Assembly: GCA_964498425.1 (NCBI GenBank)
Contig: CAZCGQ010000002.1
Coordinates: forward strand, 34,193-98,192
Source: an uncultured Gammaproteobacteria bacterium
GTDB lineage: Bacteria > Patescibacteriota > Microgenomatia > UBA12405 > JAHJSD01
Length of the DNA stretch: 64,000 bases
Reading direction: 5' to 3'
Shown here one piece after another: positions 4,826 to 54,816 of this stretch (positions within the stretch are counted from its first letter, which is position 1; each line of letters begins with the position of its first letter). Below the pieces are notes generated by a model. That model searched no databases. It was not told the DNA's origin and saw only the letters and a program-made list of their open reading frames with translations. Made by a program: the position numbers and the translations under genes.

Positions 4826-5299
4826 ATGGCTGAACTCGGCAACTACGATAAGCTAAATCCTCTTGAGCGGGCGAGATTGTTTAAAAGAATTAAAGAGGAT
4901 GAAGGCTTAAGCTACAAGGAACTTGCTAAGAAAATTGATAAGAGTGCTTCTTTTGTTGCTAATTCTGTTCGATTAATAGATCTTCCGATTGCAATTAAGG
5001 ATGGATTAATGGGTGGGGTAATTTCAGAAGGACACGCAAGAGCTTTGGCTTCTTTAAATAATCCAACCGATTGTATTTCAGTTTATAAAGAGGTTTTGAA
5101 AAGTCATGCTACGGTTAGAGAAACGGAAGAATTGGTTAGGGAAAAGAAGCAGGACCAAAAAAGTAAAGTAGATATTGATGAAAAACAAGCTAAAAAAATT
5201 AAGGATTTTTTAGAAAAACTTCTTGATGTTGAAATTAGTGAAATTGAGGCTAATCCTAAGGTGAGCCGACTAATCTTAAAGGTTTTTTTGAATAGTTAA
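4826..5299 (+). CDS. ParB/Spo0J-like HTH protein lacking the N-terminal ParB/Srx domain
   Basis: LSYKELAKKIDKSASFVANSVRLIDLP...ISEGHARAL matches the ParB HTH region. No GERRxRA-type N-terminal domain is present. Confidence 0.5.
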   Translation: MAELGNYDKLNPLERARLFKRIKEDEGLSYKELAKKIDKSASFVANSVRLIDLPIAIKDGLMGGVISEGHARALASLNNPTDCISVYKEVLKSHATVRETEELVREKKQDQKSKVDIDEKQAKKIKDFLEKLLDVEISEIEANPKVSRLILKVFLNS

Positions 5300-5862
5300 T
5301 AGTCGGCGTGTTCAATTAAGCCAACTCTATCCGTTGGCCAGTAACGGAAGAAGGCTCGGCCAACAATGTCTTCTTTAGGTGTCGTGCCAAATTCGCGACC
5401 ATCACGGGAATGTGAACGGTTATCGCCTAGAAGTAGATATTGGCCTTGGGGGACAATTAAGGGCTTTCCTTCACGAAGATAACTTCCTGAGGCGGTTTTA
5501 AAGTCTAATGGCAGATATTCTTCATAAAGCGGGTCACCGTTTATCCAAATCCGGTCGTTTAGAATTCTGATGGTTTCACCGGGAAGTCCAATAACTCGTT
5601 TAATGTATTCACATTCGTTTTCGGCACAAGGCTCGCTGGGAGGGGCTTTGAAAACAACAACTTCCCCTCGTTGCGGCTCACGTCGTTTATAGCTGACTTT
5701 TTCGGTTAAAACGAATTCTTTGTCGTGAAAGTTTGGCTCCATTGAGTGGCCGTGAACCTGGTTTGGCTGGGCGACAAAGAGGTAGAGCAAAACAAAGACG
5801 GATAAGGCCAAAACAAGGGCCTGAACTGAATCTAGAAAAAATCTGAAAACTTTCTTAAACAT
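5296..5862 (-). CDS. lepB: Signal peptidase I
   Basis: N-terminal TM helix, HGHSMEPNF (Ser box), GDNRSHSRDGREFG (box E). Confidence 0.85.
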   Translation of the reverse strand: MFKKVFRFFLDSVQALVLALSVFVLLYLFVAQPNQVHGHSMEPNFHDKEFVLTEKVSYKRREPQRGEVVVFKAPPSEPCAENECEYIKRVIGLPGETIRILNDRIWINGDPLYEEYLPLDFKTASGSYLREGKPLIVPQGQYLLLGDNRSHSRDGREFGTTPKEDIVGRAFFRYWPTDRVGLIEHADY

Positions 5863-5908
5863 ACTGGTACAGTTTATACCCTTTGATATAATATCTCAAG
5901 GGGTAATC

Positions 5909-5981
5909 GGGCCTGTAGCTCAGCGGTTGGAGCGCGCCGTTCACATCGGCGAGGCCAGTGGTTCGAATCCACTCAGGCCCA
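5909..5981 (+). tRNA. tRNA-Val (anticodon CAC)
   Basis: Cloverleaf GGGCCTG/CAGGCCC acceptor, GCTC/GAGC D-stem, anticodon loop TTCACAT, TTCGAAT T-loop. CCA is not encoded. Confidence 0.85.
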
Positions 5982-6794
5982 CAGATTGATGGTTGTGAAA
6001 TAACGCCCGCGGTAGTTGGAAAATCGGGGAGAGGAGAGAATTAGTTTCTTGGCTTCGTCAATGTTAAAACTCTTAGGGTTTAGTATATCTGTAAACTTTG
6101 ATAGTTTATCCCAAGAGTAAGCTTCTTTTGGTTTTCCACCGGATTGATTCCAATTATCGGTCTTTTGCTGAGAGAGATAAAAGTCGGTTGTTAAGTATAT
6201 TTTGCCGTTGTTTTTTTTCACTCGAAGCATTTCTTTTAACGCTTGTTTTGTTCTTGGCCAGTCGTCTAGGTGTTCTATGGCAGATATGGATATGACCAGG
6301 TCGAATTGATTGTCTTTGAACGGCATTTGGCACATATCGGCTTTAACGAAATTAACCTTTGTTTCCGGCACATCCGACCAGGGCTTATTTATTTTCTTTA
6401 TGTCTAAGGACGTAACGTCTGCTTTTAAACTAGCTAAATATTCTGGAAGTAAGCTTGGGCCAGTACCAATATCAAGAATTTTTAATCCCTTGAAATTAGT
6501 ATCTTTTAGTAGATTAAGCAATGCGCCATATTCCCAAGCCCGTATGCCATATGTTTCCGGCTCAAATATCCGTTGAAACCAACCAGAATGAAATTCACCC
6601 AGCTTTTTTATTTTCTGTCTAACCAGACGAATATCTTGACGGTCAGAAATCTTGTTTTGAAGAGGATCTTCTTGGCTATTGAAAGGAGTAACCCATTCCC
6701 AACCATAATTTAACAACCATTTTGTATCCCAATATCCATTTTTGCTGAATAGTTTGATCCAGTTGATTAGGGCTTGGTGCCAGTATTGCCGCAT
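5973..6794 (-). CDS. Class I SAM-dependent methyltransferase
   Basis: LKILDIGTGPSLLPEYL (motif I), DLVISISAIEHL. The stop codon overlaps the tRNA-Val 3' end by 9 nt. Confidence 0.7.
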   Translation of the reverse strand: MRQYWHQALINWIKLFSKNGYWDTKWLLNYGWEWVTPFNSQEDPLQNKISDRQDIRLVRQKIKKLGEFHSGWFQRIFEPETYGIRAWEYGALLNLLKDTNFKGLKILDIGTGPSLLPEYLASLKADVTSLDIKKINKPWSDVPETKVNFVKADMCQMPFKDNQFDLVISISAIEHLDDWPRTKQALKEMLRVKKNNGKIYLTTDFYLSQQKTDNWNQSGGKPKEAYSWDKLSKFTDILNPKSFNIDEAKKLILSSPRFSNYRGRYFTTINLWA

Positions 6795-6818: not shown

Positions 6819-9449
6819 TTATCGCGGTTGGCGAACTCTTGATGGATTTTTGAAGTATGTTTCTTGACCTAAGTTTATGCCAAAGTAAGCATCTGGTTGA
6901 GCAAGAAAATATTTATACTGATTGGTTTCTTCAGCGGCTAGACCATTTATTGCTTCTCCTAATTTTAAACTAGCCGGCTTCAACTTATTGATATCCTGAT
7001 TACGATCATTGGCTAATTGCAAATAATTTTTGCCTAAACTGGAATAACCAACTGCTTTTTTAAAATTATTTAAGGCATCTTGTTTGGAAATCGACAAGTG
7101 ATATTGATTAATTTTTTGCCAAGCAGAAACAAGCAAGCGACTAATTTCTAGTGAATGATTGAATTTAGCAATTTCGTTTTCTAATAGCTTTTTCCTATAT
7201 TCCGACAAGTTATCTAGAGCATTTTTGATTTCAGCGATTACATCTAACCAATTTTGACTGTCTACGTTATCAATGGCTGAAGAAATGTTGTTTTCAGCAG
7301 TATTGAGAACTTGAGCATTGTTGTCGTTTAGTTTTCTTAACTCAAACAAGGCTAGTTCGAGCAAGTTTTTTCCAGTTTGATCAACTAAGGGGTCTTCTTC
7401 TGGTTGATTGGGCTTGATTTCAAATAAGTATTCTTTTTCTTGACTTAAGCTTATTTCGCCTTGATAGGTTTGCCAGTAACTGCCTTGTGGGGTTAACTGT
7501 CCCAAATAGAGATGATAGGTTCCGTCGGCAATTCCGGTTAATTTTGCTAGATAGTCATTTGGATTTTGAGGATGATCAATATATACCATTTGTAGATCAT
7601 CTTCTTCTGGAGTGTAAGTTTGGCCAGTATTTAAGTCTTCAACCTCTAAAACAGCAGGAGAGGCTAAGTAAAAAATTAGCATATCGCTGGCTGAGGGTAA
7701 CTTATACCCAGGGGCAAGGGTTGGGATTACTGGGTTGCTAATTCCAATCTCTTTTAAAATTTCTTCTAAGGGCTGGTCATCGTGGACTAGTTCCTTGTGT
7801 TCTAATGGGAACTCTAATGGATTGTCATTTCCGAGATAACTGCTCGAACGAAGAACTGTTTGGTCTCCAACACCAAATAAGGTTTGAATCGGCTTACCGT
7901 CAGGCCACAAATTAAGCAATTTGTCGACGAGGTTTGTTTGATTTAAATTAAGCTGTTCTGGAGTAGAGTCCGGCATGTTTCCGGCAATGAAACTGGTCTG
8001 GTTGATAAATGTATTTGTTACCGGATCGGCATTGAGGTCAATCAAATAGTTATTAATAAAATTGTGGCCGTTATTTGACGATAGCATCTGACCATCTTTA
8101 AAAAGATAATCAAAGGAGGGTGTTAGGTCGTATAAAACTGGAGCAAAGTTTTGAATTACTGCAGCATCGATTTGAAAACCACGTCGATTGATGTGAACTA
8201 ATAACTCCATGCCAATCCATTCTAGATCTCGCTGTTCGCCAATTTTACCGCCGGCTAAGGCTTGATAGGCTTGAACAGCACCTTGATGAGGAGAACCTAC
8301 GGTTACTATCTTCCCAACCTTGTTTTGATTATCTTTAGCCCACTGTCTACTAACCATACCGCCTAAAGAATGTCCAATTAAATTAATTTTGTCCTTTGTT
8401 TTTAAGCCGTCAGTATTTTCAATGAAAAAAGCTAGATCATCGGCGGATTCTGATATTGGCTGACGCCAATCATACGGCCAAAGAAACAAATCTTCACCAG
8501 TTGTATAACCATTTTGCTCAAGTGCATGATATAACCGTTGATAGACTGGTTTAGCGAATGGGATTAGCTTCCACTCGCTTTGATCAACCTCCTGGTCTAA
8601 GACCATTGCCTTTGTATTCCAACTTGCCGACAACCCCGGCACAACCACCACCCCCTCACTCGTTAAATTCGGTTCTCCAACAGAGCGGACTAATACATCA
8701 TCAAAGCTCTTAATCATTTCTCTACCTTCTGACACACTTGGATAAGTACCACTCCAAGAAGCTAAACCAATGCCTCCAACCGATAAAGGGTTTACGCTTA
8801 TATCTTTAAATTTAACAACTTCATAAAAACTGGTACTATCCGGACATTTAATAAACAAATTAAATTTATTTTCGGATACCTCTACCCTTAATGAATACCA
8901 TTTGTTATTGTAAATCGAACAACCTATCCTTTCCGGCTGAATTTCCATCCAAGTATTTTTAAAATTAATATTTTCATCATCACCAATTATTTCTGCCCAG
9001 TCAAAAATATCAATTTCCTGTTTATCGATAACCTTTACTATTCTAATATTATTTTCCTCCCAATATAGAGGGGCATTCGCTCTTAAATCAATAAAATAGT
9101 AACTTTTTTGATCACTTGCCACTCGTATTAGTACATCTTGATCAACTCCATCTTTTCCATACATTTTGACTTCTATAATGTAGTCACTCAAATCGTAAAT
9201 CTGGCTATCAGAAGGAAAATAAGTTTCAAAAACTCTTTTTTCAGCAAAATTGACTTCAATTGACTTGTTACCCAAATCATTATCAACTAATTTCCAATTT
9301 TCTGAACCAATCCAGTATTCTCTAATTGAATCAAAATTATCTTGAAAATAAACAGAACTCGCATATACTGATTTTGAATTAAAAAGGAAGCCAATTATAA
9401 TTACAGAAAGAAAAAAGAAGATGTAATTAACAATTACCTTTAATGGCAT
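6819..9449 (-). CDS. Large secreted alpha/beta-hydrolase (LCAT/PGAP1-like lipase) with an N-terminal ConA/LamG-like domain
   Basis: Signal peptide, WPYDWRQ plus GHSLGG (LCAT-family YDWR and GxSxG nucleophile elbow), 876 aa, C-terminal helical/coiled region. Confidence 0.6.
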   Translation of the reverse strand: MPLKVIVNYIFFFLSVIIIGFLFNSKSVYASSVYFQDNFDSIREYWIGSENWKLVDNDLGNKSIEVNFAEKRVFETYFPSDSQIYDLSDYIIEVKMYGKDGVDQDVLIRVASDQKSYYFIDLRANAPLYWEENNIRIVKVIDKQEIDIFDWAEIIGDDENINFKNTWMEIQPERIGCSIYNNKWYSLRVEVSENKFNLFIKCPDSTSFYEVVKFKDISVNPLSVGGIGLASWSGTYPSVSEGREMIKSFDDVLVRSVGEPNLTSEGVVVVPGLSASWNTKAMVLDQEVDQSEWKLIPFAKPVYQRLYHALEQNGYTTGEDLFLWPYDWRQPISESADDLAFFIENTDGLKTKDKINLIGHSLGGMVSRQWAKDNQNKVGKIVTVGSPHQGAVQAYQALAGGKIGEQRDLEWIGMELLVHINRRGFQIDAAVIQNFAPVLYDLTPSFDYLFKDGQMLSSNNGHNFINNYLIDLNADPVTNTFINQTSFIAGNMPDSTPEQLNLNQTNLVDKLLNLWPDGKPIQTLFGVGDQTVLRSSSYLGNDNPLEFPLEHKELVHDDQPLEEILKEIGISNPVIPTLAPGYKLPSASDMLIFYLASPAVLEVEDLNTGQTYTPEEDDLQMVYIDHPQNPNDYLAKLTGIADGTYHLYLGQLTPQGSYWQTYQGEISLSQEKEYLFEIKPNQPEEDPLVDQTGKNLLELALFELRKLNDNNAQVLNTAENNISSAIDNVDSQNWLDVIAEIKNALDNLSEYRKKLLENEIAKFNHSLEISRLLVSAWQKINQYHLSISKQDALNNFKKAVGYSSLGKNYLQLANDRNQDINKLKPASLKLGEAINGLAAEETNQYKYFLAQPDAYFGINLGQETYFKNPSRVRQPR

Positions 9450-9484: not shown

Positions 9485-10360
9485 ATGTCAAGCAAAACCT
9501 TACCAATAACAGTAATAATTGTAACCTACAATAGTAATAAACATATTTTCAAATGCATCGAAAATATCAGTAAATCTACCCAGACACCAAAGGAGATAAT
9601 TATTTTTGATAATAATTCAAATATTTCACCTTTTAAAGAGATAAAAAAACTAAATAACAAAAAAATTAAAATTCAAACAATTCAAAATAAATCTAATATC
9701 GGTTTCGCAAAAGCTGTAAATAAAGCTAGTAAACAATCAAAAACGGATTATTTACTACTATTAAATCCGGACTTTTACATTAATAAAAAGGCAATTGAAA
9801 GCATATGGAAAACTATGAACTTAAAAATGTCTACAGCGGTTGTAGGAGGAAAAGCAATAGGTCAAAATAATAATATACTCAAAACTATTGCCAACAAACC
9901 AAGTTTTATGACTTTATTTATCGAATTCACTTCTTTAAAGAAAATATTTGAGCTTTTTAACATCGAAAACGCTAGTAATTTCTGGGATTGTAAAGCTTTA
10001 AGATCTAAAAAACCTGTACAGGTCGATGCTGTTTCAGGGTGCTTCATGTTAATCAAAAAGAAGTGGTTTGACGAAATTGGTAAATTTGACCCAAAATTTA
10101 AATTGTATCTAGAAGATCTTGATTTATGTTTAAGAATTGGTAATAAAAATGGAAATATTTATTTTGATCCCCTTAGTTATGGTTACCATATTGAAGGAGG
10201 CAGCAGTGTAGATAAACCAAATAAAATCAATCAGGCTTTCTGGGACAAATCTAAAAGGTATTTTTCTAAAAAATATTTTGGTACACTGGGAAGATTGCTA
10301 ATAGTAGTGTATTTTCTGGATGATATACTACTTAAAATTAAAAAATCAGTACTTAAATGA
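9485..10360 (+). CDS. Family-2 glycosyltransferase
   Basis: ITVIIVTYNSNKHI...IIIFDNNS, DXD-like region, GT2 fold. Gene is very AT-rich. Confidence 0.7.
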   Translation: MSSKTLPITVIIVTYNSNKHIFKCIENISKSTQTPKEIIIFDNNSNISPFKEIKKLNNKKIKIQTIQNKSNIGFAKAVNKASKQSKTDYLLLLNPDFYINKKAIESIWKTMNLKMSTAVVGGKAIGQNNNILKTIANKPSFMTLFIEFTSLKKIFELFNIENASNFWDCKALRSKKPVQVDAVSGCFMLIKKKWFDEIGKFDPKFKLYLEDLDLCLRIGNKNGNIYFDPLSYGYHIEGGSSVDKPNKINQAFWDKSKRYFSKKYFGTLGRLLIVVYFLDDILLKIKKSVLK

Positions 10361-22533: not shown

Positions 22534-22568
22534 AGTTTATTATACCTTAAGAAGTGTTATAATTAACT

Positions 22569-23598: not shown

Positions 23599-23621
23599 AA
23601 TTTATTGTAACATAGGGGGAG

Positions 23622-24819: not shown

Positions 24820-26046
24820 CTAACTAACTGTCCCTAGATGGGGGAGATTAAATTTTCGGGGGCGGTCTTCTAAAGCAGGTAAACTGGAAGCTAAGGTCAG
24901 AATTTGACTGCCGTAGCGTTGTTTGAGCTTGTCGACATGATAATAAACTTGGTCTAGTTTTTGCTTTCTTAATTTTGACGAGAATAAGTCCATTTGAACT
25001 TTACCAGCTGGCTGGAGCCTTTTCATGGTTACTCCGGTGGCTCGGTAGGTAATTCGGGGACGAAACATTTTTTGAAAAGCCCGTTTGACAGCTAAAGACA
25101 TTTCCTGAGGGTTGTTGGTCGGAGTGTCGAACTTGACAACTTCGGCTTGGAAATTAAAGGTTTGGGTTTTTAACATAACATTAACCTGCCCGGCAACCAT
25201 TTTTAAACTTCTTAGTCGAGAACAAGCTTTTTCTAAGTTTTTGGTCAGTTCGCCGAAAACTTTGTCGGCTTTGTCGGAAGCGGGATGAAAAGTCCTTGAC
25301 CGGGTAATTGATTGATAGGCTTCTTTCTCACCAAGATCTAGTTGGTAAACTTTGTCGCCGTTGAGTTCCTGCCAAGTTTCATGATGGGGTTTGGTTAAAT
25401 GCTTTTTGACCCAAGATTCAGGCCTTTGGGCAAAGTCCCAAGCGTCTTTGACACCGAGCTTTTTGAGATAAGCACTGGTTTGGCTGCCGATGCCCCATAT
25501 TTCGGAAAGGGGTAGGTCTTTGAGGTGGTGGTGAATTCGATTGCCTGGTATAGCAACCAAACCAGATGGCTTATCCCACTCGGACGCAATTTTAGCAATA
25601 GTTTTATTCGGGCCCAATCCAACGGAAACAGTGATGCCTAAGTCGGATTCAATTTTTTCTTTGATCTGGCGGGCAATGCCTAGATAGGAAGTGTTGTAGG
25701 GACGGCGTAAACCGGTCAAATCAGCAAAACACTCGTCAACAGAATATTTTTCAACTTCGGGAGTGAACTGGGTGATGATATTGAACAAGCGTTGGGAAAA
25801 AAGGTGATAAACTTCATAGTCAGAATTGACAAAGTTACAGTCCGGGCAAAGCTGTTTGATTTTTGAGCCAAGCATGCCACGTTTGATACCGTAACGTTTG
25901 GCTTCATAACTTATTGCTGTCGCTAACCCTCTTTCTGCCCCAATAACAACCGGTTTACCTTTTAATTTCGGGTTTAACGCTTGAGCACAAGAGGCAAAAA
26001 AAGCGTCGCCGTCAACATGGAGAAGGGAAGGAGCGTTTATCGGCAT
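24820..26046 (-). CDS. dinB: DNA polymerase IV (Y-family)
   Basis: LHVDGDAFFASCAQ (catalytic DxD..F), Y-family palm/fingers, little-finger C-terminal domain. Start overlaps the lexA stop. Confidence 0.85.
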   Translation of the reverse strand: MPINAPSLLHVDGDAFFASCAQALNPKLKGKPVVIGAERGLATAISYEAKRYGIKRGMLGSKIKQLCPDCNFVNSDYEVYHLFSQRLFNIITQFTPEVEKYSVDECFADLTGLRRPYNTSYLGIARQIKEKIESDLGITVSVGLGPNKTIAKIASEWDKPSGLVAIPGNRIHHHLKDLPLSEIWGIGSQTSAYLKKLGVKDAWDFAQRPESWVKKHLTKPHHETWQELNGDKVYQLDLGEKEAYQSITRSRTFHPASDKADKVFGELTKNLEKACSRLRSLKMVAGQVNVMLKTQTFNFQAEVVKFDTPTNNPQEMSLAVKRAFQKMFRPRITYRATGVTMKRLQPAGKVQMDLFSSKLRKQKLDQVYYHVDKLKQRYGSQILTLASSLPALEDRPRKFNLPHLGTVS

Positions 26047-26609
26047 TTGCGAATAACTCCTTTGACAATAGCTGCAACTTTTAAATCTTCCTGAGGATAG
26101 ATTGGTTTAAAATCTTTGTTGGCCGGCATGAGATATGGCCGACCGTTTTTCTTTTGCAAATATTTCATCGTCCACTCACCGTCAACTTCGGCAATGACAA
26201 TCCGACCAAAGTCGGCTCGGTCGGTTTTTTCAACTAAAACAAGATCGCCGGGTAAAATGCCGGCGTCTTTCATAGATAAGCCTTTGACTTCTAAAAGATA
26301 GGTTGATTCTTTGTTGTCGATTAGGAATTCATCTAGACTGACGGTGTCGACAAAGTCTTCTTGAGCATCGGTTGGAAAACCGGCTTCAACTTGACCCAAA
26401 ATTGGAGTTTGGCCGTAAAGGTTATTGGGAATCAGTCGTCCCTGACCGTCCTGAGAAACAAATTTTTCAGCAACCAGCTTTTTGACGAGTTTGTAAACGG
26501 AGTTTTTGGAATTATAGTCGAACATGTCCATCATTTCCCGATAAGTAGGCATGCGTTTGTTTTGCTGATAGAAGTTTCTGACTTTTTTCTTTTTGTTTTT
26601 TAAGGTCAT
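26037..26609 (-). CDS. lexA: LexA repressor (S24 peptidase)
   Basis: N-terminal winged HTH, GQVEAGFP cleavage region, GLSM...K Ser-Lys dyad (EVKGLSMKDAGILPGDLVLV; TMKYL). Confidence 0.85.
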   Translation of the reverse strand: MTLKNKKKKVRNFYQQNKRMPTYREMMDMFDYNSKNSVYKLVKKLVAEKFVSQDGQGRLIPNNLYGQTPILGQVEAGFPTDAQEDFVDTVSLDEFLIDNKESTYLLEVKGLSMKDAGILPGDLVLVEKTDRADFGRIVIAEVDGEWTMKYLQKKNGRPYLMPANKDFKPIYPQEDLKVAAIVKGVIRKCR

Positions 26610-26620
26610 GATTTAATACT

Positions 26621-26638
26621 AGTGAACGATCGTTCACT
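26621..26638. promoter_or_regulatory. SOS box: perfect 18-bp palindrome AGTGAACGATCGTTCACT (GAAC-N4-GTTC, Cheo-box type)
   Basis: Sits 12 bp upstream of the lexA start, in the divergent intergenic region shared with the nuclease/helicase operon. Confidence 0.7.
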
Positions 26639-26700
26639 TGTCAAGAGGGAATTTCACTTCAAAAAAATAATCTAGAACTTCTATGTGTTACAATTTTTGT

Positions 26701-27567
26701 ATGGAGCAGGATAAATACGAGGCGTTGTGGCTGTCGCATACCAAAATTCAGGCTTATTTGAAGTGCCCGCGGGCTTATTACCTTAAAAACATCTACCGTA
26801 ATCCGGATACAGGGAATAAAATCCAGTTGATGCAGCCGCCATTGGCTCTTGGCCAAGCGGTTCATGAGGTTTTGGAAAGCATCGCAGATTTACCTAAGGA
26901 GGAACGGTTTAAAACTTCGCTGTTAGCTAGATTGAAAAATGTTTGGAAAAACGTTTCTGGGAAGAAAGGTGGTTTTTTTTCCGATGAGGTTGAAAATCAA
27001 TATCGGCGTGAAGCGGAGGAAATGCTGGAAGCAGTAACCGATAAGCCGGGACCGCTGAAACGGTTGGCTGTAAAGATTAATATGGATCTACCTCATTACT
27101 GGTTGTCTAAAGAGGATAATTTTATTCTTAGCGGCAAGATTGACTGGCTGGAATATTTGCCTGAGACGGATTCGGTCCATATTATTGATTTTAAAACTGG
27201 GCAAGCCCGGAATGACGAGAATTCACTTCAACTGCCAATTTACCGGCTGCTGGTAGAAAACTGTCAAACCTGGCCGGTTGAAAAGGCAAGTTATTGGTAT
27301 TTGCGCCACAATAAAATGGAGGAAAAGAAGTTGCCCTCAAGCGAGGAAGCTAAAAAGAAAGTGATGAAGATTGGCAAAAAGATTAAGCTGTCTGGACAGT
27401 TGAATAAGTTTCCTTGTCCGGAAGGGGAAAAGGGGTGCCGATACTGCCGGTCGCTAGAAAGAATTGTTAATGGAGAAGGGGAGTTGGTTGGCCAGGGGAA
27501 ATACGGTAGTGATATTTTTGTTCTTCCTAAAGAAAAGACGACTAAAAAGAAAGCTACACTTCTTTGA
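26701..27567 (+). CDS. PD-(D/E)XK nuclease of the Cas4/AddB/RecB family with a 4-Cys Fe-S cluster
   Basis: Cys near the N-terminus (YLKCPRAY), GKIDWLE, HIIDFKTGQ (D/ExK), QLPIYRLL (QxxxY), C-terminal CPEGEKGCRYC. The ORF could start at 26683. Confidence 0.65.
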   Translation: MEQDKYEALWLSHTKIQAYLKCPRAYYLKNIYRNPDTGNKIQLMQPPLALGQAVHEVLESIADLPKEERFKTSLLARLKNVWKNVSGKKGGFFSDEVENQYRREAEEMLEAVTDKPGPLKRLAVKINMDLPHYWLSKEDNFILSGKIDWLEYLPETDSVHIIDFKTGQARNDENSLQLPIYRLLVENCQTWPVEKASYWYLRHNKMEEKKLPSSEEAKKKVMKIGKKIKLSGQLNKFPCPEGEKGCRYCRSLERIVNGEGELVGQGKYGSDIFVLPKEKTTKKKATLL

Positions 27568-27582
27568 TAGAATTATTTTGCG

Positions 27583-28773
27583 GTGAAATTGAGTAATGAC
27601 CAAAAATTGGTTTTGAGAGAAATTTGGAAGTGGGTCTTCAAGAAGGAGTTTGATTCCAAGTTTAAGAATAAGTCCTTTTTGACTTTTGGGGGGTATGCTG
27701 GAACAGGGAAAACAACGATGATGGCGGTTTTTCGACAGGGACTTCATCAACGTAAACCAAAAAAGAAGGTGGCTTTTTGTTCTTACACTGGTAAAGCAAC
27801 CCGGGTTTTGGAACAAACTTTGGATAAGTTTAGCGCTAAACTTCCGGGCGATAAGTCCGGAACAATCCACTCATTGATTTATGAACCAATAACTAATGAT
27901 AACGGCCAAGTTATTGGCTGGCAGAAAAAGAAAACACTGGAGGTGGATTTAATTATTGTTGATGAAGCGTCGATGGTGGACGGCTACATCTGGTCAGATT
28001 TGCAGTCGTTTGGCGTACCTATTTTAGCGGTTGGCGACCACGGCCAACTCCCGCCAATTCGAGGCGAGTTTAATTTAATGGAAACACCGGATATTAAACT
28101 GGAAAAAATTCATCGCCAGGCTAAGGGAAACCCGATTATTGAGTTGTCGGAAAAAGTTCGCCAAGGGGAGAAAATCCCCATTGGTGATTTTGGCCAGGTA
28201 AAAAAGTTTGACCAAACTGACTGGGAAACCAAGGCAGTGGTTGATGACATCGTTAGCAATTATGACGATAATTGGCTGATTTTGGTTGGCTATAACCGGT
28301 CACGGGTTCAACTGAATAATGAAATCCGCCAAGTTAATGGAATGATGACGGAAGAACCGCAAAGCGGAGATAGAGTAATTTGTTTGAAGAATAATTATGA
28401 AAAGGGGATTTACAACGGTATCCGAGGAGTAATAACCTCGATTCAAGAAAAAGAAGATGCCGAGGGCAGAGGATTGTGGTATGAAATGTCAGCCAAAATG
28501 GATGATGGAGTTAATTACTCCGGTAGGGTTTTGCAAGAACAGTTTAACGCTAAAAAAACAATTAATAAACCTGATGATTTGGATTACAAAGATATGGGGG
28601 ATTTGTTTGATTACGGCTATGTTTTAACTGTTCATAAGGCCCAAGGGAGTCAAGCCCCAAAGGTGCTTCTTTTTGAAGAACGATTTAAACAGATGACTGA
28701 CGATGATTGGCGGCGGTGGCTGTACACCGCGGTTACCCGAGCCGAAGAAGAACTGATCATTATTGGGAATTAA
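27583..28773 (+). CDS. SF1B RecD/Dda-like DNA helicase
   Basis: GGYAGTGKTTMM (Walker A), IIVDEASMVD (Walker B), VGDHGQLPPI, VLTVHKAQGSQAPKV, TAVTRAEEEL. Confidence 0.75.
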   Translation: MKLSNDQKLVLREIWKWVFKKEFDSKFKNKSFLTFGGYAGTGKTTMMAVFRQGLHQRKPKKKVAFCSYTGKATRVLEQTLDKFSAKLPGDKSGTIHSLIYEPITNDNGQVIGWQKKKTLEVDLIIVDEASMVDGYIWSDLQSFGVPILAVGDHGQLPPIRGEFNLMETPDIKLEKIHRQAKGNPIIELSEKVRQGEKIPIGDFGQVKKFDQTDWETKAVVDDIVSNYDDNWLILVGYNRSRVQLNNEIRQVNGMMTEEPQSGDRVICLKNNYEKGIYNGIRGVITSIQEKEDAEGRGLWYEMSAKMDDGVNYSGRVLQEQFNAKKTINKPDDLDYKDMGDLFDYGYVLTVHKAQGSQAPKVLLFEERFKQMTDDDWRRWLYTAVTRAEEELIIIGN

Positions 28774-28814
28774 TCCATCATCTTTATAACTTTAATATTA
28801 TGTTATAATCTGCG

Positions 28815-29177
28815 ATGGAAAGAGAAGCAAATTTGGCTCCAATATCTTGTAACCCAAGATGCTGTCCAGTTTTTGCGGAGGCTGTTAATCAAACAATATC
28901 AACAGTAATTAACGAGGTTTATGCTGATTATTTTTACCATGAAGTATGCCGAAAAGAACTTCCCGAAATAAAAACATTTAGAGATTTACCTTATTCCAGA
29001 GAAATTGAAGTTATTCCAGCAATTTGCACTGAAAGTCCGGTAATGGTTCCCAGAGGTTGTCTAGCTACAGGTTTTTTGGAAATTGACTTATCGATAAAGC
29101 CGGAATCAACAGCTAATGGAGAGTTGACTATTACTTCGCGACCTATTACTTGCCCAATCCGCCACGTTGAAGTTTAG
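28815..29177 (+). CDS. Orphan Cys-rich hypothetical protein
   Basis: 120 aa with about nine Cys (CNPRCCP...C...C...C...C). Confidence 0.3.
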   Translation: MEREANLAPISCNPRCCPVFAEAVNQTISTVINEVYADYFYHEVCRKELPEIKTFRDLPYSREIEVIPAICTESPVMVPRGCLATGFLEIDLSIKPESTANGELTITSRPITCPIRHVEV

Positions 29178-29947: not shown

Positions 29948-30094
29948 TATACACTAATCAGCGGTTAAAGACTTTTCCCAGCGGGTTTGTAGTTATTTAA
30001 CGGCGGATTCCCTTTTTTCTTCGTCAAAATTTCGTTCAACTCTACCTGCCACTTTCATTATTCTAACATAAAGGGTTATTGATATAATTGATTT

Positions 30095-32638: not shown

Positions 32639-32856
32639 CTAATTAGAAAGTTACCATATTATCTTTTCTGAGACAATCGCTCATTCTTTAGTGCCGACAT
32701 ACACATTTTTTAAAAAGCTCATTCCGCTACTCGCACCCAATAAGTAACTTTTTTAATTGAATTTTTTAGCAGGGTGCTCCTAGAGGCTCGTTCAAAGATA
32801 ATAATGCTAACTTTCTTAGAACCACTAGTTATTTTGGTTTTTGATAAAATACATCT

Positions 32857-38937: not shown

Positions 38938-38982
38938 TTAGGTGTTAGGTGTTAGGTGCTAGCGGCTAGTGGTATATAAATT

Positions 38983-40374
38983 ATGAAAAGTCTTAATAAA
39001 TTAACAATAACTGAGGCGAGAAAGGGTCTTAAGAATCAAGATTTTACGGTTACAGATTTAGTTAAGGCTTGTCTTAACCGAATTGAAGAAACGAACCAAG
39101 AACTGAATTCATTTTTAACTGTCTGCAAAGAGGAATCTCTTGCCCAAGCCAAAAAATTAGACCAGGATTTAAAAAACGGATCACTAGCCACTAGCACCAA
39201 GCCGCTACTTGGCATTCCTATCGCTGTTAAAGATAATTTTTGTACCCAAGGGGTAAGAACGACTGCCAGCTCTAAGGTTTTGGATAATTTTGTTCCTCCT
39301 TATGACGCAACTGTGGTCGCTAAACTTAAGGAAGCGGGAGCAATTATTATCGGTAAAACTAATATGGATGCTTGGGCTCATGGTTCGTCAACTGAAACTT
39401 CAGCTTACGGCACAACTAAAAACCCTCATAATACCGATTTTTCGCCGGGTGGATCTTCGGGCGGTAGTGCAGCTGCGGTGGCTAGTCATCAAGTTATTGC
39501 GGCGGTTGGTTCGGAAACAGCTGGGTCAATCCGCCAACCAGCGGCTTGGTGCGGTGTGGTTGGATTGAAACCTACTTACGGCCGGGTCAGCCGATGGGGA
39601 TTGATTGCCATGGCTTCATCGACTGATTCTCCTGGGCCGATAACCAAAACTGTTGAAGACGCTGGAATTTTGTTGAGCGTTTTGGCTGGTAAGGATAAAA
39701 AGGATGCCACCAGTTCGAATGAACCGGTCGCCGATTATCAAAGCTATGATTTAGACCCAAAGGAAATCACTATCGGAATTGCCAAAGAATATTTTCTTGA
39801 AAATATGAATAAAGAGGTAAAAGAAGTTGTTAATCAAAAGATTGAAGATTTGAAGAAAGCTGGTTTTAAAGTTAAAGATGTTTCGCTTCTTGATCCCAAA
39901 TATTCTATTGCTGTCTACACTATTGTTCAACGAGCGGAGGTATCTTCAAATTTAGCTAGATTTGACGGCATTCGTTATGGTAATAACCGTACTGCTTTTG
40001 GGTCTGAGGCAAAAAGACGGGTTATGCTTGGTACCCATGTTTTGTCCTCGGGATATTATGATGAGTATTACACTAAAGGCCAGCGGGTAAGAACACTAAT
40101 TAAAGAAGATTTGGATAAGGCTTTTCAAGAAGTTGATGTTATTGTCGCCCCTACGTCTCCAACTCCAGCTTTAAAAATTGGGGAAAGCGCCAAAAGTCCG
40201 ATGTTTGGCGAAATGCAAGACGTTTTAGTAGAGGCTAGCAGTTTAGCCGGGTTACCAGGAATAAGTATTAACGCTGGATTTTCCAACAAACTACCAATAG
40301 GAATTCAATTTTTTGCCCCTCAGTTTAAGGAAAAGTTAGTTTTAGGAATTGCAAGTATGGCGGAAAATGTTTAA
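38983..40374 (+). CDS. gatA: Glu/Asp-tRNA amidotransferase subunit A (amidase)
   Basis: Amidase signature GGSSGGSAAAVA, Ser-cisSer-Lys triad region. Confidence 0.9.
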   Translation: MKSLNKLTITEARKGLKNQDFTVTDLVKACLNRIEETNQELNSFLTVCKEESLAQAKKLDQDLKNGSLATSTKPLLGIPIAVKDNFCTQGVRTTASSKVLDNFVPPYDATVVAKLKEAGAIIIGKTNMDAWAHGSSTETSAYGTTKNPHNTDFSPGGSSGGSAAAVASHQVIAAVGSETAGSIRQPAAWCGVVGLKPTYGRVSRWGLIAMASSTDSPGPITKTVEDAGILLSVLAGKDKKDATSSNEPVADYQSYDLDPKEITIGIAKEYFLENMNKEVKEVVNQKIEDLKKAGFKVKDVSLLDPKYSIAVYTIVQRAEVSSNLARFDGIRYGNNRTAFGSEAKRRVMLGTHVLSSGYYDEYYTKGQRVRTLIKEDLDKAFQEVDVIVAPTSPTPALKIGESAKSPMFGEMQDVLVEASSLAGLPGISINAGFSNKLPIGIQFFAPQFKEKLVLGIASMAENV

Positions 40375-45080: not shown

Positions 45081-45143
45081 AACTAAATCCTACCATAAAT
45101 ATGTCTGTTAAAAATTCATGCAAGTTTTTGATAAAATCAGTTT

Positions 45144-52695: not shown

Positions 52696-52730
52696 TTCAT
52701 AATACTTAAAATAGTTGTTAAAATAGAGAC

Positions 52731-54132: not shown

Positions 54133-54816
54133 ATGGCGATTTACATTTACCACGGTGACGATAGTTTTCAAAGTCGCCGGGAACTTACTAATGCTTTGAA
54201 AGGATATCCCCAAGTTAAACGCTTTGAAGGTAAGGATATATCTTCTGAAGGTATAATCCAGGCTAGTGGCGGGTTATTTAGTCAAGGCAATGTTGCTTTA
54301 GTTTTAGAGAAGTTGTTTTCACTTGGAAAAAATCAATTTAAAGAGGTTAATAAGTATATCGAAAAACTTAGTCCAGATTATGATTTTTTTATCTGGCAGG
54401 GAAAACGGCTTTACCCCAATCAAATTAAAAAGATTGCCGATAAACCGAAGGTTAATGAGTACAAACTGCCGAATACTATTTTTAAGTTATTAGATTCTAT
54501 TGGAAAGAGTAATCATAACCAACTGTTAACCCTTCTTCAGGGTAGTTTTCAAACTCATCCACCGGAGGTTATTTTTTATTTGGTTCAAAAGCGTTTGAGA
54601 AAGATGATTTTGGCCAAAGAAGATTCAGAATATTTAACCGGAGCTGGTTGGCAAAAGAGAAATTTGTATAATCAAGTTAAGGGAATATCTACAGATTTGA
54701 TTGCTGATTGGTACAAGAAAACTGTTATTATTGAATATAAGAATAAAACCGGGCAGCTTGGTCGAGAGTTGGACGCGGAGTTGGTGAATTTAATGGTATT
54801 ATTTAGTAAGCGCTAG
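54133..54816 (+). CDS. holA: DNA polymerase III delta subunit-like (short HolA)
   Basis: N-terminal IYIYHGDDSFQ, typical of HolA, and a helical C-terminal domain. Confidence 0.4.
   Translation: MAIYIYHGDDSFQSRRELTNALKGYPQVKRFEGKDISSEGIIQASGGLFSQGNVALVLEKLFSLGKNQFKEVNKYIEKLSPDYDFFIWQGKRLYPNQIKKIADKPKVNEYKLPNTIFKLLDSIGKSNHNQLLTLLQGSFQTHPPEVIFYLVQKRLRKMILAKEDSEYLTGAGWQKRNLYNQVKGISTDLIADWYKKTVIIEYKNKTGQLGRELDAELVNLMVLFSKR

Follow-up and report, generated by a model that had tools for sequence, protein, structure and literature searches.

Results

Organization of the locus

The locus described here lies in a 64,000-nucleotide (64 kb) stretch of contig CAZCGQ010000002.1 (hereafter the window). It comprises a lexA-dinB pair on the minus strand, a palindromic putative LexA operator and, on the plus strand, genes encoding a stand-alone Cas4/AddB-type nuclease and a superfamily 1B (SF1B) helicase. 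The data presented below make it probable that these genes form three independent units, in which the nuclease and helicase are housekeeping genes that came to lie near lexA-dinB through lineage-specific rearrangement and are most likely not controlled by LexA. Gene identities, motif positions and the conservation, or non-conservation, of the arrangement were observed directly. The features of the locus are as follows.

24820 to 26046, minus strand: dinB, DNA polymerase IV of the Y-family, 408 amino acids (aa), with IMS, IMS_C and IMS_HHH domains; second gene of the lexA-dinB operon
26037 to 26609, minus strand: lexA, self-cleaving SOS repressor, 190 aa (Peptidase_S24, TIGR00498)
26616 to 26621, minus strand: −10 hexamer TAGTAT of the lexA promoter (promoter scan)
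26621 to 26638, no strand: putative SOS box (LexA operator) AGTGAACGATCGTTCACT, with a GAAC-N4-GTTC core (motif search and relatives)
26639 to 26644, minus strand: −35 hexamer TTGACA of the lexA promoter, abutting the box (promoter scan)
26686 to 26694, plus strand: extended −10 element TGTTACAAT, inferred nuclease promoter (same element in relatives)
26701 to 27567, plus strand: stand-alone Cas4/AddB-type PD-(D/E)XK nuclease with four cysteines for an Fe-S cluster, 288 aa (PDDEXK_1)
27565 to 27573, plus strand: extended −10 element TGATAGAAT, inferred helicase promoter, over the nuclease stop codon (same geometry in relatives)
27583 to 28773, plus strand: compact SF1B helicase, Dda/RecD2-like, 396 aa, GTG start (AAA_30, UvrD_C_2)

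The start of dinB overlaps the stop of lexA by 10 nucleotides (nt), and 15 nt separate the nuclease stop from the helicase start. The lexA-nuclease intergenic region, given as ~75 bp in an earlier note on this DNA, measures 91 bp once the nuclease start is moved from 26683 to 26701. Flanking the two plus-strand genes are housekeeping genes, namely lexA-dinB and a DUF1295 gene, with mutS and mutL downstream. The identities that the earlier note had assigned to the four genes (lexA, dinB, a Cas4/AddB-like Fe-S nuclease and a RecD/Dda-like SF1B helicase) were borne out by domain, fold and PHROG matches.

The putative operator is the spacer of the lexA promoter

The palindrome AGTGAACGATCGTTCACT (18 bp, 26621-26638) does lie between lexA and the plus-strand genes, as previously noted, and has no other match in the 64 kb even when three mismatches are allowed; no match occurred in 100 shuffles. 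The bare GAAC-N4-GTTC core is also found once in the window but is not significant alone, because 0.84 occurrences are expected by chance. GAAC-N4-GTTC is the classical Gram-positive SOS box, and the assignment of the palindrome to that type held. The lexA strand reads TTGACA-AGTGAACGATCGTTCAC-TAGTAT-TAAATC-ATG, and a promoter scan of the minus strand (26644..26616) returned TTGACA-17-TAGTAT with 10/12 matches. The palindrome is thus the 17-nt spacer of lexA's own promoter, touching both hexamers. An operator within a promoter spacer is the textbook geometry for repression by occlusion. The −10 hexamer is only 6 nt (TAAATC) from the ATG, which suggests that the lexA-dinB mRNA is probably leaderless; relatives display TATTAT, TATAAT or AATATT at the equivalent place. 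No plus-strand promoter overlapping the box was detected in the promoter scan. Two other elements near the box were considered and rejected: TTGTCA at 26638-26643 as a plus-strand −35, with no −10 seen by eye at a usable spacing, and a second TTCACTT at 26653-26659 as a half-site, because it is not kept in relatives.

The same promoter architecture recurs at other lexA genes. The sample was drawn from metagenomes and consisted of 80 loci whose LexA proteins share 48-95% identity with that of the window. A box (GAAC-N4-GTTC with at most one mismatch, within 150 nt) precedes lexA in 56 of the 75 distinct loci with enough upstream DNA, and TTGACA (at most one mismatch) lies directly upstream of it in 50 of these 56. 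The consensus is CTTGACAGTGAAC-nnTC-GTTCAC-(C)TATAAT; in most box-bearing loci a −10 follows the box, with the ATG usually 5-7 nt further on. Where enough downstream DNA was available, dinB follows lexA on the same strand (40/51 loci). Of the 80 loci, only L086, whose LexA is 95% identical to that of the window, has the nuclease and helicase less than 4 kb away from lexA; the gene-neighbourhood check proposed in the earlier note therefore goes against a conserved association. The conclusion from the lexA-locus comparison is that the conserved unit is operator-lexA-dinB. Across the 856 kb of locus DNA compared, full-strength boxes are confined to lexA promoters; two weak matches inside open reading frames (ORFs) were dismissed as chance.

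LexA matches Peptidase_S24 (PF00717; 1.5e-26) and the TIGR00498 lexA model (115 bits, cutoff 110.95; alignment over residues 10-189). As regards the N-terminal winged-helix DNA-binding domain typical of LexA, the TIGR00498 alignment covers the N-terminus from residue 10, and the Pfam LexA_DNA_bind model gave no match at E<=0.01. An Ala76-Gly77 cleavage site and a Ser112/Lys149 dyad were identified by reading the sequence. DinB contains the Y-family core (IMS, 1.3e-48), little finger (IMS_C, 4.2e-16) and HhH (IMS_HHH, 9.7e-6) domains. Among NCBIfam models it is matched best by those for Pol IV (210-227 bits); these scores are under the equivalog cutoffs, and the protein is therefore described as a DinB-like Y-family polymerase, not as a curated equivalog.

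The first unit would thus be the lexA-dinB operon, autoregulated by LexA and probably leaderless. With a LexA dimer on the palindrome, between the −35 TTGACA and the −10 TAGTAT, RNA polymerase would be blocked. Upon DNA damage, RecA-stimulated self-cleavage of LexA (at Ala76-Gly77, through Ser112/Lys149) would free the promoter, after which LexA would be resynthesised along with the translesion polymerase DinB. LexA binding and damage induction are predicted here from the architecture of the promoter and the features of the protein.

Predicted nuclease and helicase promoters

The extended −10 element TGTTACAAT (26686-26694) is 6 nt before the nuclease ATG at 26701 and 47 nt from the box, and we infer that the nuclease is transcribed from this element of its own as a leaderless mRNA. 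Similarly, TGATAGAAT (27565-27573) ends 9 nt before the helicase GTG and is the putative promoter of that gene. Both elements have counterparts in relatives. The closest-relative set comprises L001, L002, L084/L085 and L086, whose nucleases are 77-97% identical to that of the window. All of these loci display TGnTAnnAT 5-7 nt before the nuclease ATG, whatever its distance to the box (TGGTAAAAT in L001, TGCTAATAT in L002 and L086, TGCTATTAT in L084/85). An extended −10 followed by 9 nt precedes the helicase start in L084 (TGATAAAAT), L086 (TGATAGAAT, then ATG) and a further relative, L083 (TGTTACAAT).

Across the window, TGnTAnnnT starting 14-18 nt before the start codon was found at 18 of 61 genes, compared with ~0.4 expected, and by this count an extended −10 close to the start codon is the normal layout of putative promoters in this genome. 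Examples are at 22555-22563, 23604-23612, 28801-28809, 30080-30088, 32842-32850, 45129-45137 and 52716-52724. Many other window genes have a plain TATAAT-like hexamer at the equivalent place, where Shine-Dalgarno sequences are mostly absent. From the placement of these elements and the scarcity of Shine-Dalgarno sequences, leaderless mRNAs appear to be the rule in this genome. No paper linking leaderless genes with Patescibacteria turned up in a full-text search.

Relative to the predicted nuclease start (~26701) the box occupies about −80 to −63. Such a position is, for a promoter of the extended −10 type proposed here, beyond the polymerase footprint and the usual reach of an occluding repressor. 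Comparison of the closest relatives bears on the same point. AGTGAAC-GNNC-GTTCACT-TGTCAA is found beside lexA in all of them, with invariant half-sites and variation in only the two central bases; the N4 sequences in the set of window, L001, L002, L084/85 and L086 are GATC, GCTC, GTTC, GACC and GGTC. The DNA between the box and the nuclease extended −10 is unrelated among these loci, and the length of the lexA-nuclease gap differs from one to the next: 91 bp (window), 162 bp (L002), 207 bp (L084/85), ~250 bp (L086) and 846 bp (L001, in which the gap holds an inserted transposase-like gene). The two promoters thus drift freely apart, which argues against a shared operator. The inserted gene of L001 is a 217-aa ORF (L001:5237-5890, minus strand), which by eye looks like a REP-associated tyrosine transposase (IS200-like). 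Similar GC-rich motifs lie beside TATATA at the two ends of the L001 intergenic region (flanks 5155-6000; CCAGGAGCGGTTTATATATACC ... GGTATATATAAACCGATCCAGGAGCGG).

The window, L084/85 and L086 are the only loci at which nuclease and helicase are direct neighbours. A convergent gene comes after the nuclease in both L001 and L002; in L001 it encodes a DcrB-like protein 62% identical to the product of the first gene of L083. This match makes the order nuclease, convergent DcrB-like gene, sortase gene, divergent helicase probable there. In relatives of the L001/L002/L083 type, two opposite-strand genes (DcrB-like and sortase) therefore probably part the nuclease from the helicase. The L083 helicase (83% identical to that of the window) stands alone behind the divergent sortase gene with its TGTTACAAT element and 9 nt; upstream of it there is no nuclease gene and no SOS box. 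The DcrB-like and sortase genes were searched for in the window and are absent.

The second unit would accordingly consist of the Cas4/AddB-type Fe-S nuclease, transcribed from the extended −10 directly before its ATG, and the third of the Dda/RecD2-like SF1B helicase with its own extended −10 over the nuclease stop. Read-through from the nuclease into the helicase is possible, because no terminator was found between them. Expression of both genes is predicted to be constitutive, and a rearrangement confined to this lineage would be the sole reason for their position next to the SOS cassette and to one another. The two-gene operon proposed in the earlier note survives as regards co-orientation and the 15-nt spacing; its status as an operon is not established, because a promoter-like element overlaps the stop codon of the nuclease gene.

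Properties of the nuclease

The nuclease matches PDDEXK_1 (PF12705) at 2.5e-28 over residues 17-256 and Cas_Cas4 at 1.4e-9. In an alignment of 20 homologues (numbering from ATG 26701), D148, D163-x-K165 and Q177-xxx-Y181 are invariant, so the catalytic D/ExK residues anticipated in the earlier note are present. Also invariant in the 20 homologues are C22 and the cysteines of C239-X6-C246-X2-C249. This is the motif arrangement of the fold class, by which the four cysteines are identified as predicted ligands of an Fe-S cluster. There are 6002 homologues at E<=1e-5, mostly 286-292 aa long and 54-63% identical. On account of these lengths, the start of the protein is most likely the ATG at 26701 (288 aa), not that at 26683.

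The nuclease profile gave no match to PDB sequences at E<=0.01, and a fold search was therefore used. The AlphaFold model (predicted local distance difference test score, pLDDT, of 88.6) was matched by Foldseek to ACE1, an Argonaute-associated Cas4-family protein, which was the best structural match, to the nuclease domains of AdnA, AddB and Dna2, and to RecE and Cas4. The matches to AddB, AdnA, Dna2 and ACE1 have E values of 1e-8 to 4e-4, query-normalised template modelling (TM) scores of 0.41-0.60 and identities of 11-17%. The enzyme scores 54.3 bits against TIGR00372 (Cas4), under the cutoff of 65. Its neighbours are lexA and the helicase, with no array-like tandem repeats in the window to indicate a CRISPR context. 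Against TIGR02786 (AddB) it scores 19.4 bits (cutoff 486.5) with its 288 aa. An AddB subunit has ~1100 aa, an inactivated helicase domain and an AddA partner, for which the window genes checked offered no candidate.

Properties of the helicase

The helicase matches AAA_30 (2.5e-20) and UvrD_C_2 (1e-16), in agreement with the domain assignments of the earlier note, and SH3_13 at 1.2e-7, under the Pfam cutoff. Invariant or nearly so in 15 homologues are Walker A (GGYAGTGKTT), Walker B (DEASM) and GDHGQLPP, together with HRQ, TVHKAQGSQ and YTAVTRA. The protein matches PHROG 325, ‘Dda-like helicase’, over its full length (1.9e-89). By this motif set and its SH3-like 2B domain the predicted enzyme is an SF1B helicase of the Dda-like class. 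Its match to RecD2 (TIGR01448) amounts to 140.7 bits (cutoff 500) and covers only positions 333-689 of the 713 in the model, and against RecD (TIGR01447) it scores 86.6 bits (cutoff 310.15). Neither recB nor recC was seen among the window genes checked. Sequence matches in the PDB are 9kwf, RecD2 (3e1s) and Dda (3upu), and there are 7757 homologues.

Nuclease and helicase loci across Patescibacteria

Both families are kept at ~50-60% identity across Patescibacteria, and their homologues are named Woesebacteria, Shapirobacteria, Dojkabacteria or ‘Patescibacteria group’, which places the window's organism in the Patescibacteria (Candidate Phyla Radiation). Many relatives' records that carry Patescibacteria-typical genes are titled ‘uncultured Gammaproteobacteria/Pseudomonadales bacterium’ (TPA_asm metagenome-assembled genomes, including L001 and L002); these titles look like placeholder or wrong taxonomy and are no guide to the organism's placement.

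The arrangement around the nuclease was assessed at 80 genome loci around orthologues, 76 of them outside the window's clade and 73 of these with enough upstream DNA. Neither lexA nor a helicase of the window's family lies beside the nuclease at any of the 76, and none of the 73 has a credible box upstream of the nuclease; five one-mismatch core matches were found, none resembling AGTGAAC/GTTCACT. Among the 80 loci, the lexA-adjacent L002 is the exception, with a box upstream of the nuclease. The neighbourhood of the nuclease is not conserved at these loci, the largest neighbour cluster being an ABC transporter (10 members in 8 loci). Helicase orthologues 60-65% identical to that of the window have a different setting: an HSP20 gene and small ORFs precede them, and ruvCAB lies a few kb beyond. 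Nuclease and helicase are unlinked in L081 and L082. The conserved nuclease-helicase module of the earlier note therefore shrinks to the adjacency seen in the window, L084/L085 and L086.

In PADLOC the nuclease matches Cas4 models (4e-15), and the helicase gives generic matches to PDC-M16A (1e-37) and type IV RecD (6e-33). The nuclease also matches the phage exonuclease family phrog_69 (8e-19). There is no complete PADLOC defence system in the window and there are no system partner genes, and no viral relatives of either protein were found in 2.9 million viral contigs.

Alternative relationships between the genes

The nuclease and helicase might form a minimal split end-resection machine, comparable to Dna2, AddB and AdnAB, that is constitutive and does not need adjacency of its genes. 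Dna2 joins the same two kinds of domain, the nuclease model fits the nuclease domains of AdnA, AddB and Dna2, both families are near-ubiquitous in Patescibacteria, and within the window's clade the two genes are neighbours or nearly so. The absence of recBCD and addAB, already remarked upon, was upheld among the window genes checked, which represent 64 kb of the genome. The unrelated locus L069 has a different, Pif1-like SF1B helicase directly downstream of a nuclease orthologue (L069:5758-7122, plus strand), and further Pif1-like helicases lie three to four genes upstream of the nuclease in L040 (2454-3767) and L064 (3742-5073). These three proteins have ~440 aa and are 22-27% identical to the window helicase; there is a faint hint here of a recurrent association between the nuclease and SF1B helicases. 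Against such a machine stand the lack of conserved linkage in the 76 genomes and the lack of fusion proteins among the top 120 matches of either family, and we regard it as unlikely. The more specific proposal of a split Dna2-like system for resection of double-strand break ends, replacing AddAB/RecBCD in the reduced genomes of Patescibacteria, is rather improbable. A literature search on AddAB/RecBCD in Patescibacteria or Saccharibacteria found nothing relevant. Were split resection true, the co-oriented pair beside the SOS cassette would be a genomic trace of the partnership, LexA control not included.

The earlier note proposed that the box controls the plus-strand genes. A shared LexA operator would then repress both divergent units, and the nuclease and helicase would constitute an SOS-induced end-processing module. 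The box does lie in a short divergent intergenic region, both enzymes are of a DNA-repair type, and several further points weigh against the three units being independent. In the window and L084-L086 the two genes are co-oriented and 15 nt apart with no terminator between them, and may in these genomes be co-transcribed and work together. In the window the box and the TG of the nuclease's extended −10 are 47 nt apart, closer than in any of the relatives, and bound LexA may exert a weak upstream effect, or the divergent promoters may interfere with each other. All transcription starts derive from consensus elements, and the 64 kb covered leave other members of the regulon (recA, uvrA and so on) outside the view. 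Control of both units from one operator is nevertheless very unlikely: the box makes up the lexA promoter spacer and falls outside the polymerase footprint of the extended −10 promoter, the gap ranges from 91 to 846 bp, no credible box is present at the 73 other nuclease promoters or the L083 helicase promoter, and 79 of the 80 lexA loci have no nuclease or helicase nearby. The description of LexA control of such a pair as unusual falls away, because the control itself is unsupported.

That the pair is a two-gene anti-phage defence system, as the earlier note had entertained, or a phage-derived cassette that landed beside lexA is extremely unlikely: set against the generic PADLOC and PHROG matches and the Argonaute-associated Cas4-family protein that tops the structural matches of the nuclease are families of thousands of members at 50-60% identity across Patescibacteria lineages, which indicates vertical inheritance of core genes, housekeeping flanks with no defence island, the separation of the two genes in most genomes, and the lack of viral relatives and of a complete system.

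Other features of the window and relatives

Downstream of the helicase a 120-aa Cys-rich ORF (28815-29177, plus strand; MEREANLAPISCNPRCCPVF...) has its own promoter-like element, TGTTATAAT. It has no Pfam, PADLOC or PHROG match and no tblastn counterpart in the corresponding region of L083/L084. Short intergenic G/T-rich repeats that contain TAG lie just upstream of promoters at L002:3330-3365, L084:1915-1990 and window 38938-38962. In the relatives the repeat is AATGGCTAGATGGCTAAATGGCTAGATGG, and in the window it is (TTAGGTG)x3.6 before the gene at 38983; GTTAG/CTAG-rich stretches also precede the window genes at 54133 and 54858. An 876-aa ORF (6819-9449, minus strand) has no NCBIfam match beyond one negligible one, and the intergenic DNA between this ORF and the divergent gene at 9485 is very rich in AT and contains mirrored TATAAT elements.

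Discussion

The locus is a further case of a known kind of SOS cassette, situated beside two conserved, uncharacterised DNA-metabolism genes. Gram-positive-type (Cheo box) autoregulation of LexA through GAAC-N4-GTTC is known from Bacillus subtilis and Mycobacterium. As in those organisms, a palindromic operator of this form overlaps the lexA promoter, the repressor has an S24 domain, and the regulon counts a translesion polymerase among its core members. The window differs in that the operator is the entire 17-nt spacer of a consensus promoter, the half-site is extended to AGTGAAC, and the lexA transcript is apparently leaderless. Jara et al., in 2003, are said to have described two autoregulated lexA-dinB operons in Geobacter sulfurreducens. 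There, too, lexA is co-transcribed with a Y-family polymerase gene, as predicted for the window, and autoregulated, whereas the phylum and the LexA motif are different and the window genes overlap by 10 nt. A comparative study has dealt with the Patescibacteria SOS network (Sanchez-Osuna, Barbe & Erill, Environ Microbiol 2017;19:3465, as cited in PMC8565304 and PMC7739468).

Stand-alone Cas4-like nucleases are common in the Candidate Phyla Radiation, mostly vertically inherited and of unknown function (Hudaiberdiev et al. 2017, PMC5704561). The window nuclease resembles these solo-Cas4 proteins in being a stand-alone Cas4-like Fe-S PD-(D/E)XK enzyme outside a CRISPR locus; it scores better with PF12705 than with PF01930 and falls under the TIGR00372 cutoff. 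With the nuclease domains of AddB, AdnA and Dna2 and with ACE1 (PDB 9iab, 9iac) it shares the fold and the arrangement of one N-terminal and three C-terminal cysteines. Unlike AddB, AdnA and Dna2, it is a protein of 288 aa with no fused helicase or helicase-like domain, and unlike ACE1 it has no Argonaute gene nearby.

The helicase has the full set of SF1B motifs and the SH3-like 2B domain in common with phage T4 Dda and Deinococcus RecD2, which are SF1B 5'-3' helicases. It differs from RecD2 in having no N-terminal domain (the match to TIGR01448 being confined to positions 333-689), from phage Dda in being chromosomal and conserved across the phylum, and from RecD in lacking a RecB or RecC partner among the window genes checked.

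These results carry a correction: the presence of an SOS box nearby in a divergent intergenic region does not imply regulation by that box, and the locus itself shows no sign of the nuclease and helicase acting jointly or responding to damage. As enzymes conserved across the phylum, both are reasonable targets for studying the processing of DNA ends in Patescibacteria. The stereotyped cassette beside them, in which a −35, an operator as spacer and a −10 precede an apparently leaderless lexA-dinB pair, recurs in dozens of related uncultured lineages, and this recurrence favours the idea that small-genome bacteria have a minimal SOS response built around translesion synthesis.

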